This document shows positions 15,001 through 24,000 of a stretch of DNA of 64,000 nt, one piece after another. Source of the DNA: Trueperaceae bacterium (lineage in GTDB: Bacteria > Deinococcota > Deinococci > Deinococcales > Trueperaceae); contig CBDCDZ010000004.1 of the NCBI GenBank assembly GCA_965215565.1, forward strand, positions 1,312,001 to 1,376,000, read 5' to 3'. Made by a program: the position numbers. Numbering within the stretch: the first letter of the stretch is position 1; each line of letters opens with the position of its first letter.

Positions 15001-18000
15001 GCTCTAACCCCACGCCTTCGCTCACAGGTATCGACGCTGCGCCGGGTGACGAAGTGAGCGTCACCTTATCGAGCCCCGAGGTGCCGACGCTTACACCCAA
15101 CATGCGAAGTTTCTCGAGCAGTTCTGATGAAATCCCTTCGTCCGTCTCCAACTCACGCTCGCCGCTCAACTCACTGAGCAGTTCTAACAAGCTACCTCTC
15201 GCCACGCTCAGCCCTCGACTTTAGGCGTATGCCCCGCCTTGAGCAGCGCCTTGAGAAAACTCTGGTGATGCTGGGGTAGCACAACCGCTTCGGTAGGCGA
15301 GAGCCGCGCTAAGATAAAATCTTTCAGGCGGGCGTCGGCTTGTAGAGCGCTCAACTCCGCCTCGTCTGAGACCTCGACGAGCGTCAAACCCTCGTGCAGC
15401 GCAACTTCTTTGGGAGCGGGGAGGGGCTCGAGCGAATCAAACTTGAGATTTCGTCTAGGTTTAGCGGACATGAAAACTCCTTTAAGTAAAAAGCAACGAG
15501 CAATGAGTTGAAAGTGTAAAAGCGTTTTGGTTTTCACTCATTGCTCGGTACTCATTGCTCCCTATCTTTCACTACTTGGTACTCATCCTTTAGTTCAGCG
15601 TGCTCGCATCCCTTACTTCCGGCTCCAACCACTCCGCCTCGTCCATAATCCTATACCCGTAGCCCTGCTCGGTCAAAAAGAGCTGCCTATGGTGCGCGAA
15701 GTCCTCCTCTTTGGTCTCGCGGGTGACGAGGCTGTAGAAGTAAGCGCTGACACCCGCACGTTTCGGGCGCAGCACGCGCCCCAAGCGTTGCGCCTCCTCC
15801 TGGCGTGAGCCGAACGCGCCCGAGACCTGAATCATCACCTGCGCGTCGGGCAAGTCGAGCGCGAAATTGCCGACTCTGGATAAGACGAGCGTCTTCACGC
15901 CGCCCTCCCTAAAGGCGGCGAAGAGCCGCTCGCGTTCGCTCTGCGGGGTTTCGCCCGTGATGAGCGGCGCGTCTAGGTCATTCGCGATGAGTTCTAACTG
16001 GTGCAGATACTGTCCGATTACCAGGCTCGGCTCACCTCGGTGATGGTCTAAAATCGTTTCGACCAGCTCGCGTTTACGCGGGTTCTCGGCGGCGATGCGG
16101 AACTTCAGCGCGGGCTCTGAGACCGCGTAGCTGAGCCGCTCTTCTTCGGACAGTCTGAGTCGCACCTCGCAGCACTGTGCGTTGGCGATCCAGCCGCTTT
16201 GCTCGAGGTCTTTCCACGGCACGTCAAAGCGTTTCGGACCGATGAGCGAGAACACGTCCCCCTCGCGCCCGTCCTCGCGAATCAGCGTCGCGGTGAGCCC
16301 CAAACGCCGCCGCGCTTGCACCTCGGCGGTGAGGCGGAACACGGGCGCGGGCAAGAGGTGGACCTCGTCGTACACGATGAGCCCCCAGTCCTGCTCGCGA
16401 AAGAGCTGCATGTGCGGGTAGACCGCTTCGGTCTCCTCTTCGCCCTTTTTGCGCCTTTTGCGCGTAGTGAGCATCTGATAGGTGCAGAGCGTGACCGGAC
16501 CCAGCTTCTTCGCGTTGGGGCGGTACTCCGCGACGTCCTCATGCGTGAGTGTGGTTTTGTCTAGCAGCTCGCGCCCCCACTGGCTGACGCTGGTGCGGTT
16601 CGTCGTCAGGATGAGCGTGCGCTGACCGACCCTGGTCATAGCGACGAGACCCACGACGGTCTTGCCCGCGCCGGGTGGCAAGACGATGACGCCGGAGCCG
16701 CCCTGCCGGGAGCCCCCGAGATAGAAGGCTTCCGCCGCGTCCTCTTGATAAGAACGCACCTGCAAGGTGTCGGCTAAAGCGACGGAAAGCTCTAACCCGT
16801 CACGGTAGCCCGCCAAGTCCTCGACGGGCCAGCCGACCTCTAAGAGCGCCTGCTTAATTAAACCCCGGTGCGCCAGCGGCACGGCGAAGGTCTGCTTGCC
16901 AAGGCGTTCGCCTAAAAGCGGGGTGACCTTGCGCTGTTTGGAGATCTCCAAGAGCAGCGCTTCGTCGCCGGGTTGGACCTCTAACCCGAGCCCCGCCCCC
17001 ACTTCCATGAGCCGCAGCCGTCCCCAGCGCCCAACGAGTTCCCGAACGTCCGTGATCACGTTTTCAGGGACGGGAAACTTGCTAAACGAGGTAAGCGCCG
17101 CCACCATCGTCTCGCTTTTTTGCCCACTGCTCGCGGCGTTCCATAAGGAGAGCGGCGTGAGCCTGTAGGTGTGCAGGTGTTCGGGGCTTTTCTCCAACTC
17201 GGCGAAGGGCGAAATCGCCGCCCTCGCCTCCTCTGCACGCGCATTGAAGGTCTCGAGGTAGATAGAGCGGTCCGCTTGCACGATGAGGGGGTTGGCAGCG
17301 TCGAACATCTCTTTAGCTTATTCGCTTAGGAAATGAGGTGCAACCTCGAGCGAACTGCGCTAGGATAGAGGGTGTGAAACGTGCTCTACTCAGTCGCATC
17401 ACGACTGACCCTGAAATCTGTCACGGCAAAGGGTGTATCCGAGAACTTAGATATTCGGTGGAGATGATTCTCGAGCTTCTCACGAGCGGTGTGACGTGGG
17501 ATGAGTTAGAGGATTACGAAGGCTTGGAGCGTGCGGATTTGCAAGCGGTTTCAGCTTCAGCGACCTCTTGATACATTGACTCGCTAAACTTTGGGGAGCG
17601 GCGCGTAAGCTTGTGCGTGAGCGCGAACTCCGTAGGGGCTACCGAGCCCTCGCGAAAGAGATGGCGCAGCAACCCGACCCCTTCATTGACTCTGGTTTGG
17701 AAGAGACGCTAAGGCTGATAGACGAGGGGTAAAGGGCGGTCTCGAGACCGCCCTAACTCAGTTTGTGCAAGGTTCTCGCCAAGCCTTCTTGCCACGACAC
17801 CTTCGGCACATACCCAAGCTCTTTTTTCGCATTCTCAATAGAAAAGTGAACATCTTGCCGCATGAGCCGCGCCCTATAGCGGGTGAGCGGCGGCTCCCTT
17901 TGCGGCGCAACCTTCGCGTAAAGCGTTTCCACCACGCTGGAAAGAGGTTCGACGATACTCCCCGGCAGATTGAGGCGCGGTTTGGGTGCGTCCAAGAGGT

Positions 18001-21000: not shown

Positions 21001-24000
21001 TCCATGCCGCGCTTTAAGCGCGCCACGTTGCGCCAGAGCTTAGCGCGGTGCTGCGGCTCGTCACGCATGATGTGGAGCGCTTGCAGCGCCGCCGCCATCT
21101 GCATCGCGGGCAGCGCCGCCGTGAAGATAAAGGGGCGCGCCTTGTGCTTGACCCAGTTGACCACCTCGCGGGGTCCCGCCATGAAGCCACCCACCGAGGC
21201 GAACGACTTGGAGAACGTACCGATGACGAGGTCAACCTCGTCCTCTAAGCCGAAGTGCTCCGCTGTGCCGCGTCCGTTCGCGCCCAGCACACCCGTCGCG
21301 TGAGCGTCGTCCACGACGATGCGCGCGCCGTAGCGCTTTGCCAGCTTGACCAGCCCCGGCAAGTTGGCGATGTGACCGCTCATCGAGAAGACTCCGTCGG
21401 TGACGATCATGCGTCCACCCGGTTTGTCGGCGTCTTTTTGCAGGAGCCGCTCTAAGTCCTCTAGGCTGTTGTGCTCGTACTTGCGGAGCGTGCCGAACGA
21501 GAGCCGCGCGCCGTCATACAAACAGGCGTGGTTCTCGCGGTCGAAGTAGAGGATGTCCTGGCGTCCGGTCACCGCGCTCAGCACTGCGAGCGAGCCCAGG
21601 TAGCCCGCGCTGAAGGTAAGCGCTGAGCCCGCGCCGAAGAAGTCCGCGAGCTGACGCTCCAACTCCTCGTGGAGCGTCAGGGTACCGGTGAGAAAGCGCG
21701 AGCCTGTACAGCTCGTGCCGAAGTCGCCGAGCGCCTCTTTCGCCGCCTCTTTGAGCCGCGCGTCCTGGGTGAGCCCTAAGTAGTCGTTCGAGCCCGTGAT
21801 GACCATCTCGCGCCCGTCCACGATAACGGTGCCACCCTGCTGCGACGCGATCGCTTTGAAGTAGGGGTGCATCCCCGCCTCCGCCGCTTCGTCCGCACGG
21901 GTAAAGTTATACGCCTTGCTGAAAATGTCGGCGGCGCGCTCGGCGGGCCTATCCAAAACGCTGCTGCGCGCCGTACTCCCTTGTACGTTCGCCCTTGCAG
22001 GTTTTTTTACGGTCGATTTTACAGATGGCTTCACGCTCGTTTTCGCATCTGTATTCAGTATGTTATCCACAGCGTCTGACAAAAGACCCTCCAACTCACG
22101 TCCTAAGCAACGATGCGCCACTCTAACATGGGTTTGCCCGGCGCGCTCTACTTCGGTGAATCTGAGCGCGTAGGCGTGTGCATAATGAGTCGCGAATGAG
22201 TGTATAAAGATAAATCGGAACCTGAGTCTGTGCGCCAACCGCAGTTTGAGCCGTCGCTCAAGTTCCGCACCATAGTTGCCCATCCTACCTCGTATCACTC
22301 TGGCGTAAAGGGCTTGGGCAACATGAGGTTGCACGAAAAGTCGGTTGAGTAGAAGAGAGGGGTAAGAATGGTTTACGACGAACAACCCTTACCCCAAAGC
22401 GAGTTTACTGGATAGACGTTGCCCTAAGTGCGAGATAAGGAAGCCTGAGAGTGGCAACGGCAGGGCGGCCTGCCCGTAACGCGGCTACCGCATCAGGAAA
22501 CACCGAGATGTAAACGGTATACGTGAAGAGAAAGTGTTGCGTGTGCGCTGTCAGCGGTGCAAAGGCAGCTTGGGGTGTGTTTACCCAGAGGGTGTCATGC
22601 GCTATAAGTGGTACAGCCGAAAGGTGGAGGGTATCTTTGCCATCTTAGATGTGCATCAGGTTGATGAAAGCTGCGCTGCTGAGGTAGCCGAGCACTTAGG
22701 TTATCCAATTCAGAGCGAAACTCGCGCCTCATGGCAAGGGACACGCGCTCTAAGAGCCGAGCGGCTAGAAGAGAAACAGGCAAAGCCCACTAAGCTCAAA
22801 GCCGCGAGCATAGACGAATTCAAACTAGGCGAGTGGTGGATGTACACGCTTACTGATGTTAAATCTCAAGCCGTTATGGACTACCGCCTATGCGAGAACC
22901 GTGATGAAGAGGTGGTTCGTGAGCTTATCGCTGCACACAACCCTAAGCTGATCATCAGTGATGGGTGTAAGAGCATCCAAGCGGCGTGTGAATACTTCGC
23001 TGACAAGCCGCATGGACGCTGTTGGTTTCACATCATCGAAGAGGTCTTGAAGCAGTTCCCCAAGAGAGAGCGTGAACTCGTGGCGCTTGATCTGCGTTTC
23101 TTGTATACCTGCACGAACCTCAAAGATGCAAGGTGGTTTCTAGGCGTCCTCACCGCTCGCTACGGCGCAACCCAGCTCGAGCCGCTACTGAATGCCTGGA
23201 CGCAGCTTGAATTCTACTGGCAGTACAAGGCGATGCCCTTGACCAACAACGCTTCGGAAACCCTTTATAGCGCTCTATGGTCAAGAAACAAAAAGCGCGT
23301 TGTCAAAGCCTTCCACCGCGCTTTGGACTGGTTCAAAGAAGCCCGCTATAGATGGCATCATCACCTCATTCGCAACAAGTCTCCCTGGCAACGCTTCACC
23401 GGACAACCCAGCAAGCCCTGGCTCAAAGCGCTCCTCACTCCTCTGAACTACTCAACCGACTTTTAGGGGTGTCTCGAATCTCCGGCGTTTTATGGGGCGG
23501 TTCTGACAACACATTTGTATTCAGCCCTATGTCTGGTATTGAGAGAGATTTTGGTAAACCTTTCACGGTAAAATAGTACGGAGTTGTTGAACAGCTCCCT
23601 TCGGTCCGATGGTCAATTTATTGGGTCTTCGTAAACAAGTAAGGAGTCACCATGCTAAAGTTTCTCTTACCACTTATTCTTCTGCTCGCACTTAGTGCTT
23701 GCGATGGCGGCCGTACAGTACGTGAAGTAGGCCTCATTAGCTCTTATGGAGCTACAGAAGAGGTCATCCTCGCGCCTGATACAGTTCAGGCAGGTGAAAC
23801 GTTTACAGTCACCGTTCAAACCTACGGGAATGGTTGCGTAGAAGCCGACGATGTGGAAGTTGCGATTACAGACAACTTAGCCATACTTACGCCCTATGGC
23901 CTTATTTCAATTCCTGGCAGAAATGAGGCCTGCCCAGAAGTTGAAAGACGACCCGAACACACTTCTCAAATCGTCTTCGAAGAGCCGGGTTCGGCAACGT

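Follow-up and report, generated by a model that had tools for sequence, protein, structure and literature searches.

The question raised by this locus is whether a bacterium of the Trueperaceae synthesizes sphingolipids, compounds that have seemingly never been looked for in this Deinococcus-related group. In the window, i.e., the 64,000-nt stretch of contig CBDCDZ010000004.1 (Trueperaceae bacterium, assembly GCA_965215565.1) that was analyzed, four co-directional minus-strand ORFs occupy positions 17753-22385 and encode an alpha-oxoamine synthase resembling serine palmitoyltransferases (SPT), a GNAT acyltransferase resembling the bacterial ceramide synthase (bCerS), a CPBP-fold membrane protein and a 3-beta-HSD/OleD-like extended SDR. 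The initial annotation had interpreted these genes as a ceramide pathway; all four are genuine ORFs with domain matches, and the gene-level interpretation is supported by the linkage and co-inheritance of spt and bcerS, the reductase gene that follows them, and the absence of lipid A genes. On the basis of these sequence data, we consider it about 80% probable that the cassette directs the bacterial route to a ceramide-type lipid backbone, and the Trueperaceae genome carrying it probably makes sphingolipids. Homology, linkage, co-inheritance and the missing lipid A genes are observed; from them we infer the substrate, the order of the steps, the role of the CPBP-fold protein, the head group and the outer-membrane location of the product.

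The spt gene (20745..22094, minus strand) encodes a protein with an Aminotran_1_2 domain (E = 5e-59), and its top PDB matches are the SPT of Sphingobacterium multivorum (8guh/3a2b; E = 4e-108, 365.6 bits). Its SKS block, which we take to be the PLP-lysine block, and its DDAH block align with the solved SPT. The best NCBIfam model is SerpalmtaseCFB, but its score of 443.7 bits lies below the cut-off of 640, no NCBIfam SPT equivalog cut-off is reached, and the substrate specificity of the enzyme is not readable from its sequence. The stop-to-stop ORF extends from the stop at 20745 to 22385, and the gene had been called from 22283 with the caveat that its N-terminal extension probably reflects a wrong start. 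This caveat is upheld by the alignment to 8guh, in which SPT homology starts at residue 157 of the ORF, by translated similarity across genera that starts at about residues 92-98, and by the end of an IS element at 22336. The gene probably begins downstream of 22283, with the true start likely between 22094 and 22070.

The single-copy bcerS gene (19451..20566, minus strand) probably starts with the ATG at 20566 within an ORF extending to 20626, and homolog alignments begin at residue 24-25 of this ORF. The protein has a weak GNAT domain match (E = 3e-7) and no match in NCBIfam or the PDB, and its putative function as a bacterial ceramide synthase is suggested by alignments to homologs. Over about 370 amino acids, it shares 32-44% identity with the bCerS-like proteins of 80 named loci, among which are the canonical Spt/CerR/kinase sphingolipid clusters of named Caulobacterales and Sphingomonadales. 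One of its relatives (37% identity, E = 4e-79) is the GNAT protein of a Robiginitomaculum (Caulobacterales) cluster that also comprises an AMP-binding gene, an SDR gene, a DAGK_cat lipid kinase gene and an spt gene whose product passes the NCBIfam SerpalmtaseBetaP cut-off (559.9 versus 500); the layout of this cluster is that of the Caulobacter CC_1154-CC_1165 region as it is described in passages of PMC11324152. An Spt-like gene lies inside the fetched 10-kb flanks in 43 of the 80 loci, and fusion ORFs join the bCerS-like protein to the synthase (P0198, P0168) or to an AMP-binding domain (P0191). Homology to bCerS alone is no proof of function, since this is a large family (1254 clusters, formed at 50% identity, with E ≤ 1e-30) that includes members without an Spt gene nearby. 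The four genomes of the group g25, for instance, possess a bCerS-like gene and no Spt at E ≤ 1e-100, and the bCerS-like protein of genome G294 and the second one encoded in G272 show 31-39% identity.

Downstream of bcerS lies the gene for the CPBP-fold protein (18727..19443, minus strand), whose stop overlaps the start of the SDR gene by 4 nt. The initial annotation had called its product a CPBP/Rce1-like membrane protease. The fold is borne out by the Pfam Rce1-like domain (39.6 bits versus a cut-off of 22.4), which the protein shares with the intramembrane glutamic endopeptidases of the Rce1/myxosortase type; the best NCBIfam match, archaeomyxosortase MrtA, reaches 67.9 bits, under the cut-off of 200. 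The assignment as a protease probably does not hold. In contrast to the catalytic motifs EExxxR and HxxxN given in the relevant part of PMC11980579, the 24 orthologs inspected display FExxxR and HxxxG, with Phe or Tyr replacing the first Glu and an invariant Gly replacing the Asn. Because two of the four catalytic residues are missing, the protein is probably not a protease, and its altered motifs fit a non-catalytic member such as CflP of Group B Streptococcus, which is presented as a non-catalytic CPBP protein in PMC13692083. The family is small, with 161 proteins at E ≤ 1e-5 that carry only the names Trueperaceae, Deinococcales or Deinococcota, and none of the 80 named bCerS-like loci contains such a gene.

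The last gene (17753..18730, minus strand) encodes the extended SDR (3-beta-HSD/OleD/HpnA-like; Epimerase E = 3.7e-27, 3Beta_HSD E = 2e-19), a putative 3-keto reductase. Its best NCBIfam model is the OleD 2-alkyl-3-oxoalkanoate reductase, with a score of 160 bits that is far below the cut-off of 580. Residues G7, G10 and G13 of the N-terminal TGAHGFIGS, which we presume to form the Rossmann motif, are invariant in 25 orthologs, as are S115/S116, Y142 and K146, presumably the SDR catalytic residues. The SDR is not an ortholog of CerR, the best match to which anywhere in the genome has an E-value of 1.6e-8; an earlier reservation that the reductase is not the closest CerR homolog was thus well founded. 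The same type of SDR is encoded directly after bCerS in loci from Myxococcales, Polyangiaceae and Dehalococcoidia (E = 9e-32, 4e-28 and 4e-23).

In the pathway that we propose, Spt would form a 3-keto long-chain base from an amino acid, most likely L-serine, and a (branched) acyl-CoA; the bCerS-family GNAT protein would N-acylate this base, and the SDR would then reduce the 3-keto group in the cytoplasm, replacing the CerR enzyme of Proteobacteria, which belongs to an unrelated subfamily. The CPBP-fold protein may serve as a membrane partner rather than as a protease, e.g., by holding or presenting the membrane-embedded keto-lipid, since key catalytic residues are gone from it and its gene is co-inherited with that of the SDR.

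The distribution of these genes was assessed across 363 other Deinococcota genomes in six families (f1 to f6), of which f1 is the Trueperaceae, with a threshold of E ≤ 1e-30 for bCerS. The phylum count of 124 bCerS-positive genomes given in the initial annotation was reproduced exactly (f1, 104/127; f2, 0/125; f3, 19/19; f4, 0/23; f5, 0/68; f6, 1/1), and Spt is confined to the same three families (98/127, 18/19 and 1/1 in f1, f3 and f6, respectively; 0/125, 0/23 and 0/68 in f2, f4 and f5). The description of the cassette as a trait of Trueperaceae therefore holds with regard to the sister families f2, f4 and f5, but the two small families f3 and f6 possess bCerS as well. Among 20 fetched loci, spt and bcerS are adjacent in all 13 f1 loci with a close bCerS, and the complete gene order reported for five relatives was recovered in each of them, by tblastn on the loci of G257, G259 and G360 and from homolog search coordinates in G260 and G359. 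The CPBP gene is present in 85 and the SDR gene in 83 of the 127 f1 genomes, and the former occurs in no other family of the order, the latter in no other family; 80 genomes have both, five have only CPBP, and three show only weak SDR matches (38-40% identity). As f3 and roughly one in five of the Spt-positive f1 genomes (several genera) lack both, neither can be essential to the pathway in general.

A terminator-like hairpin (20640..20663, minus strand), consisting of a 9-bp stem with 6 G-C pairs and a subsequent run of seven T, stands between spt and the bcerS-CPBP-SDR genes, which may therefore form two transcripts in this genus. The number of terminator-like sites in the region (three observed versus 6.3 expected from shuffles) is not significant in itself; a comparable hairpin is found at the same place in two loci of the same genus (L014 and L033), followed by the common CGGTATGCT immediately before the bcerS ATG. 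At the other end of the cassette, a G+C-rich inverted repeat (17734..17753, minus strand), recognized by inspection of the sequence, begins inside the SDR stop codon and is a possible end of the transcript; its T tail is weak, and it is absent from the output of the terminator scan of the region. The upstream region of spt is adjoined by a Mutator/IS256-like IS element outside the pathway (22336..23464, plus strand; Transposase_mut E = 5.5e-7), with 31-nt inverted repeats at 22336-22366 and 23434-23464 and a transposase ORF at 22534-23466. A second copy, 100% identical over 1129 bp, is located at C4:4036169-4037297.

With Spt falling short of all curated SPT cut-offs, the product could be a related N-acyl amino-lipid made by a synthase with another amino-acid specificity, for instance a 1-deoxy base derived from alanine or glycine, a cysteate-derived sulfonolipid-type capnoid, or another acylated aminoketone. 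Cysteate-C-fatty acyltransferases are strong PDB matches of Spt (28eh, E = 2e-74; 7u7h, E = 3e-70), and passages of PMC11334938 link environmental Spt-like clades to 1-deoxysphingolipids. We nevertheless regard such a product as unlikely, since characterized SPTs outscore every other activity in the PDB search by about 60 bits or more, and an SPT model is the best NCBIfam match both of Spt and of other non-proteobacterial synthases encoded beside bCerS. Far less credible still is that the synthase is a housekeeping enzyme of the Kbl/BioF type, accompanied by GNAT, CPBP and SDR genes for unrelated envelope or sugar-metabolism functions that travel together. Spt does match the Thermus BioF/Kbl-type enzyme 7poa well (302 bits, E = 1.5e-88; 270 bits versus KBL), and the SDR also resembles sugar-nucleotide epimerases. 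Apart from Spt, the genome yields no alpha-oxoamine synthase match; however, no bioB gene scores above its cut-off there, so that Spt is not needed as a BioF enzyme, and its co-inheritance with bCerS, their joint absence from three families, their adjacency and their fusion speak for ceramide-type synthesis.

More finely balanced is the role of the lipids in the envelope. The genome (99.99% complete) yields no match to LpxC, LpxB, LpxK or Glycos_transf_N (KdtA), as had been noted before, and the LptF/LptG pair likewise recorded is found at C4:900025-902111. That ceramide lipids stand in for LPS is a conjecture, and the odds are only slightly against their being a membrane component that is minor or made only under certain conditions (stress, temperature, salinity) instead. 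Deinococcus and Thermus control genomes also have LptF/LptG matches and none to the four lipid A and Kdo families; the LPS-less sister families possess neither Spt nor bCerS; about a quarter of the f1 genomes, many of them incomplete, have no such genes (e.g., nine of ten in genus g22); and the IS element directly precedes spt in this genome. On the other hand, sphingolipids can compensate for lipid A loss in Caulobacter, according to the portion of PMC9393093 dealing with it, and in other f1 genera the cassette continues in one gene string into Glyco_tran_28_C, LPG_synthase_TM, MacB_PCD+FtsX and ABC_tran genes (tblastn on close f1 loci: glycosyltransferase, 8/13; flippase-like gene, 8/13; MacB-like gene, 6/13). 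These export-type genes make an envelope role plausible, and from such extended clusters the family's end product is probably a glycosphingolipid (glycosylceramide) that would reach the envelope by flipping and export. In the genome studied here and its genus, these genes lie apart from the cassette; here they are scattered, and the glycosyltransferase/flippase-like pair is multi-copy and could thus serve glycerolipid glycolipids. The relevant section of PMC3072082 describes the polar lipids of T. radiovictrix only as an uncharacterized glycolipid and phospholipid mix.

A close comparison for the proposed ceramide pathway is that of Caulobacter crescentus, which comprises Spt (CC_1162), CerS/bCerS (CC_1154) and CerR (CC_1164), plus AcpR and AasR. 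Both systems link an SPT-type synthase to a bCerS-family GNAT protein (PMC11324152 for Caulobacter), and in both the keto reduction is assigned to an extended SDR that depends on NAD(P), a putative role in the Trueperaceae. CerR is reported as periplasmic in parts of PMC11087976, whereas the non-orthologous SDR of the Trueperaceae is presumably cytoplasmic because it opens directly with the TGAHGFIGS nucleotide-binding motif, which we read as leaving no room for a signal peptide. In addition, the Trueperaceae cassette contains no AMP-binding gene in the domain search, the model that fits its Spt best is of the CFB type, not the alpha-proteobacterial one, and it includes the lineage-specific CPBP-fold gene; it has no ceramide kinase or phosphoglycerate genes, in place of which relatives of this genome have a glycosyltransferase.

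LPS-less Sphingomonadales, and also Sorangium, have glycosphingolipid outer membranes. The Trueperaceae bacterium resembles the former as a diderm that combines Spt and bCerS with the absence of lipid A genes, to which its relatives add a glycosyltransferase, and the bCerS-like proteins encoded close to Spt in three Sphingomonadales loci (L098, L099, L102) are 33-37% identical to the one studied here. In the Trueperaceae, the genes of the putative pathway are not family-wide, and the putative export genes of the relatives are of the MacB/FtsX type. The same tight Spt-bCerS-SDR cluster order is found in MAGs of uncultured Dehalococcoidia, Myxococcales/Polyangiaceae, Zixibacteria and Planctomycetota (Spt-bCerS-SDR in L108 and L090, bCerS-SDR in L100 and L101, Spt close to bCerS in L073 and L110). 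Identity reaches only 42-51% in the case of Spt and 42-44% in that of bCerS, but the Spt proteins of these clusters, too, score best with the CFB model, below its cut-off, and their SDRs are of the same subtype as that of the Trueperaceae bacterium (31-32% identity, E = 4e-23 to 9e-32).

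The four minus-strand genes at 17753-22385 constitute a real and coherent cassette for a ceramide-type lipid, as predicted from the genes themselves. They are co-directional, as the initial annotation had claimed, and follow one another head to tail as four open reading frames: an Aminotran_1_2 synthase (spt; 20745-22385, 546 aa when read from the stop to the first start), a weakly GNAT-like protein without an NCBIfam family that resembles bacterial ceramide synthases (bCerS; 19451-20626, 391 aa), an Rce1-like/CPBP membrane protein (18727-19443, 238 aa), and an extended SDR of the Epimerase/3Beta_HSD kind (17753-18730, 325 aa), the start of which overlaps the stop of the CPBP gene by 4 nt. 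Both the longest spt frame and the spt start at 22283 favored by the initial annotation are overcalls, since the homology to SPTs of solved structure begins only at residue 157 of this frame, translated similarity across genera sets in at about residue 92-98, and an IS element has one of its ends at 22336. Candidate starts are a TTG at 22094, a TTG at 22082 with GGAGGG just upstream, and a GTG at 22070. For bcerS, the alignments with homologs start at residue 24-25 of the frame, which indicates the ATG at 20566 as the start codon.

A terminator-like hairpin (20640-20663, minus strand), with a stem of 9 bp and seven T in a row, separates spt from bcerS. Comparable hairpins occur in the corresponding spacers of two loci from the same genus (L014 and L033). 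Shortly ahead of the bcerS ATG, these loci and the window share the element CGGTATGCT, which is thus conserved across the three genomes of the genus and could represent the -10 box of a nearly leaderless bcerS transcript. Given this hairpin and T run, and their counterparts in the same-genus loci, the cassette may be expressed as two transcripts in this genus. A promoter scan of 17200-22800 detected no sigma-70-like sites.

The synthase groups with characterized serine palmitoyltransferases (Spt), which are both its top matches in the PDB and the subject of its best NCBIfam model. The foremost structure is the Sphingobacterium multivorum SPT (E 4e-108, 365.6 bits; aligned to residues 9-389 of 8guh), followed by a Thermus BioF/Kbl-type enzyme (302 bits), the Sphingomonas SPT (281 bits) and KBL (270 bits). 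The best NCBIfam model, SerpalmtaseCFB, yields 443.7 bits, under its cut-off of 640; the scores for the three SPT equivalogs NF047600, NF047599 and NF047603 are 443.7, 394.6 and 319.7 bits, with cut-offs of 640, 500 and 670, respectively. The same NCBIfam profile is found for bCerS-adjacent synthases of Dehalococcoidia, Zixibacteria, and a Pseudomonadota MAG. Since these enzymes, those of non-proteobacterial phyla included, fall short alike, the cut-offs are clade-specific, and an identity of the cassette synthase as an SPT remains compatible with the scores. It is the only match to the alpha-oxoamine synthases in this 99.99% complete genome; no bioB above the cut-off was found there, and a role of the synthase as BioF is therefore not needed.

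The second gene was assessed by scanning species genomes with an alignment of seven bCerS sequences, which gave 80 named loci; the window protein is 32-44% identical to the matches in all of them. A published survey accepts bCerS proteins at E<=1e-30 and at least 50% coverage to a known bCerS (PMC11334938). Measured against bCerS-like genes from loci of Sphingomonadales and Caulobacterales (L098, L099, L102, L084, L064, L106), used as references in place of the Caulobacter protein itself, the window protein reaches E-values of 1.6e-53 to 4e-79 in alignments of about 370-390 aa. In 43 of the 80 loci, the fetched flanks contain an Spt-like gene (E<1e-40), and in 24 loci an SDR is located within 1.2 kb of that Spt, the position occupied by the proteobacterial ceramide reductase CerR. 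In the Robiginitomaculum (Caulobacterales) locus, the order is AMP-binding enzyme, SDR, Spt, DAGK_cat kinase, and bCerS-like gene, and its Spt clears the NCBIfam model SerpalmtaseBetaP (559.9 > 500). Spt and bCerS-like genes are also paired in Sphingomonas, Sandarakinorhabdus and one further Sphingomonadales locus, and database ORFs exist in which a bCerS-like part is fused to a synthase (P0198, P0168) or to an AMP-binding enzyme (P0191).

The bCerS-like family is large, with 1254 clusters (50% identity) at E<=1e-30, and it includes members without a nearby Spt (in the genomes of genus g25, in G294, and as a second copy in G272); the assignment of the cassette protein as a bCerS consequently rests on its genomic context and not on homology alone. 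Divergent paralogs with 30-39% identity occur where Spt is absent (L029, L030, L031, and L032 at 22268-23398), so this family has at least one further function. Neither a phmmer search of the PDB (nothing usable) nor the ESM Atlas (generic GNAT clusters only) refined the assignment of the window protein; among the cluster members of ten distant representatives, the only informative name was that of a Kiloniellaceae MAG, and Caulobacter was not represented.

Genomic linkage and co-inheritance with spt supply this context. Close homologs of the cassette proteins bear the source names Truepera radiovictrix, Trueperaceae and Deinococcales, and on this basis the window's own family, f1, was equated with the Trueperaceae. 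The family tally of bCerS proteins (E<=1e-30) reported in the initial annotation was reproduced exactly: 104 of 127 genomes in f1, 19 of 19 in family f3, the single genome of f6, and 0 of 125, 0 of 23 and 0 of 68 in families f2, f4 and f5. Spt (E<=1e-100) coincides with this pattern (98/127 in f1, 18/19 in f3, 1/1 in f6, none in f2, f4 and f5). The cassette-type SDR (E<=1e-50) is present in 83 of 127 f1 genomes and is missing from f3 (0/19), f6 (0/1), f2, f4 and f5, and a search within the order for the cassette-type CPBP protein (E<=1e-20) found it in 85 of 127 f1 genomes and in none of those of f3 (0/19), f2, f4 and f5. All these tallies include genome G324, which possesses all four genes; each f1 count drops by one without it. 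Among 20 fetched loci of relatives, 13, all from f1, contain a close bCerS, and Spt lies directly upstream in each of the 13. What follows bCerS varies: CPBP and the orthologous SDR in eight of these loci, CPBP without SDR in one, a different SDR (29-35% identity) without CPBP in three, and neither gene in one. The remaining seven loci (four from f3, two from g25, and G294) have distant bCerS-like genes (31-43% identity) and no Spt within the stretch; spt and bcerS are unlinked in f3, being about 900 kb apart in G144, for example.

The flanks of the cassette differ between the fetched loci of relatives, even inside the genus. Directly upstream of spt is an IS element (22336-23464, plus strand) that has inverted repeats of 31 nt and encodes a transposase of the Mutator family (ORF 22534-23466). 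The genome contains another copy of it at C4:4036169-4037297 (1129 bp, 100% identical), so the element was probably active recently. It is part of a stretch of low G+C content (0.49-0.53; 22.4-24.6 kb) that also contains two ORFs without a family, beyond which lie genes of the histidine-biosynthesis type (24602-26995; class I/II aminotransferase, IGPD, glutamine amidotransferase). Downstream, also on the minus strand, are genes for an XPB/ERCC3-type helicase (15590-17308) and, at 12467-15205, for a Helicase_C_3 domain protein of 912 aa, neither of which has a match in the 20 fetched loci. With respect to bcerS itself, proteins of Rubrobacteraceae, including Rubrobacter taiwanensis (P0065, P0093, P0067), are 62-65% identical to the window protein; the T. 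radiovictrix protein is 65% and those of f3, a family of the same order, are 40-44% identical. Because the Rubrobacteraceae proteins are as near as that of T. radiovictrix and far nearer than those of f3, these identities hint at a transfer of bCerS between Actinomycetota and Trueperaceae. At the same-genus locus L033 (G258; 6741-11009), Spt, CPBP and SDR are 94%, 91% and 79% identical to the window proteins and bCerS only 63%; here it looks as if the bcerS allele alone had been replaced.

A search of the genome with the Robiginitomaculum SDR that occupies the CerR position found only generic matches (best E 1.6e-8), so the genome has no CerR (NDUFA9-like) ortholog. The cassette SDR ranks fifth (9.1e-6), in keeping with the caveat attached to the initial annotation that another protein of the genome is closer to Caulobacter CerR. 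Its nearest curated models are the OleD 2-alkyl-3-oxoalkanoate reductase and HpnA, both scored far under their cut-offs, and the nearest structures include NSDHL; OleD, HpnA and NSDHL are all enzymes of 3-keto/3-hydroxy lipids. The same SDR subtype is found directly 3' of bCerS in loci of Myxococcales, Polyangiaceae and Dehalococcoidia.

The CPBP protein possesses a recognizable Rce1-like domain (PF02517; 39.6 bits, cut-off 22.4). Active CPBP members are described as having the motifs EExxxR and HxxxN, with the first Glu and the Asn being catalytic (PMC11980579). In 24 orthologs of the cassette protein, the corresponding segments, matched by motif pattern and not by structural alignment, are F150-E151-x-x-x-R155 and H218-x-x-x-G222, so that FExxxR and HxxxG replace the catalytic motifs. 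The family is tiny (161 proteins at E<=1e-5, with names from the Trueperaceae lineage only), its gene occurs in none of the 80 bCerS-like loci of other phyla, and a PDB profile search with the CPBP alignment gave nothing usable. CPBP and SDR occur together in 80 genomes, CPBP alone in five, and weak SDR matches only in three; bCerS or Spt is present in all 85 CPBP-positive genomes. We infer that CPBP and SDR act as a module of two genes, the CPBP-fold protein being non-catalytic and assisting the reductase. A complex prediction for the two proteins from alignment inputs, run without controls, gave a score of 0.00 and was counted neither way. Two kinds of apparent fusions were dismissed: P0458 (452 aa, with Rce1-like and SDR Pfam labels) results from a frameshift in the tail of CPBP, through which the reading continues into the SDR, and the frames of about 600 aa that stay open around CPBP/SDR are, by the coordinates checked, chance out-of-frame openness in G+C-rich DNA.

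A diderm envelope is a trait of the phylum. The statement of the initial annotation that lipid A and Kdo genes are missing was borne out for LpxC, LpxB, LpxK and Glycos_transf_N (the KdtA N-domain), which have no match in the 99.99% complete genome; E. coli, Caulobacter and Bacteroides were matched for each of these families, and LpxA, LpxD and LpxH lay outside the search. LptF/LptG, likewise as stated there, are present, as they are in the Thermus and Deinococcus controls, and LptD has no match in the genome. Because lipid A genes are missing phylum-wide in the controls, whereas the sphingolipid genes are lineage-specific, the idea that ceramide lipids act as a general LPS substitute is weakened.

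In other genera, the cassette continues on the same strand with genes for four further proteins: a Glyco_tran_28_C glycosyltransferase, the flippase-like LPG_synthase_TM, a MacB_PCD+FtsX permease of 850 aa, and an ABC ATPase. The entire set of eight genes is packed head to tail in G342 (L021). By tblastn, the glycosyltransferase and the flippase-like gene were each found at eight of the 13 close loci and the MacB-like gene at six, and none of the three at the loci of the window's genus or in L032. Homologs of the extension genes are scattered in the window's genome. Pairs of glycosyltransferase and LPG_synthase_TM genes are located at C4:1906194-1908341, where the flippase-like gene has two in-frame TGA codons, and at C4:2388875-2391016; a third, solitary glycosyltransferase (C4:767667-768836) is 57% identical to the cluster-linked enzyme of locus L017. 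A far-reaching interpretation, to which we assign a probability of roughly one in five, is that Trueperaceae have a self-contained, Lpt-independent route for making and exporting a glycosphingolipid, which would become a major outer-leaflet lipid of their LPS-less outer membrane. With the lipid-binding groove of its family, the catalytically dead CPBP-fold protein would then pass 3-keto-ceramide, still embedded in the membrane, on to a 3-beta-HSD-type reductase in the cytoplasm, the CPBP and SDR module thereby replacing the periplasmic CerR; the glycosyltransferase would cap the lipid, an MprF-type flippase domain would flip it, and a MacB-type mechanotransmission ABC pump would extract it.

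The make-up of the outer membrane in LPS-less Deinococcus-Thermus bacteria is a long-standing question, for which the cassette offers a concrete and testable lipid candidate in one lineage. At least one type species of the Trueperaceae has been cultured and sequenced, and its name appears on homologs of three of the four proteins of the cassette (bCerS, Spt-adjacent SDR). The lipids of T. radiovictrix are described as uncharacterized, and two peaks in its FAME profile were assigned to 1,2-diols (iso-C18 and iso-C15) solely on the basis of equivalent chain length (PMC3072082); as a speculation, these peaks might in part be products of long-chain bases. Searches of one literature collection found no relevant paper joining Truepera with sphingolipid synthesis, nothing that combines Deinococcota or Deinococ* with bacterial sphingolipids and SPT, and only two unrelated matches for bCerS with Deinococ*. 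The main text of PMC11334938 is silent on Deinococ* and Truepera, as the initial annotation had claimed. Any novelty is tempered, as some 40 phyla have already been credited with Spt-like genes in metagenomic surveys (PMC11334938), and the supplementary lists of such surveys may include Trueperaceae.

The pathway itself is known; we found no report of it from this lineage, where its reductase is not orthologous to CerR and a probable pseudo-protease, specific to the lineage, accompanies it as a partner. The layout of the Robiginitomaculum cluster mirrors that of the Caulobacter region (PMC11324152). Beyond adding another phylum to this known pathway, the Trueperaceae cassette offers another way, independent of CerR, to accomplish the reductase step, and a probable pseudo-protease as membrane partner. 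CerR has been reported to be periplasmic (PMC11087976), unlike the cassette SDR, which starts with its nucleotide-binding motif and thus seems to have no room for a signal peptide.
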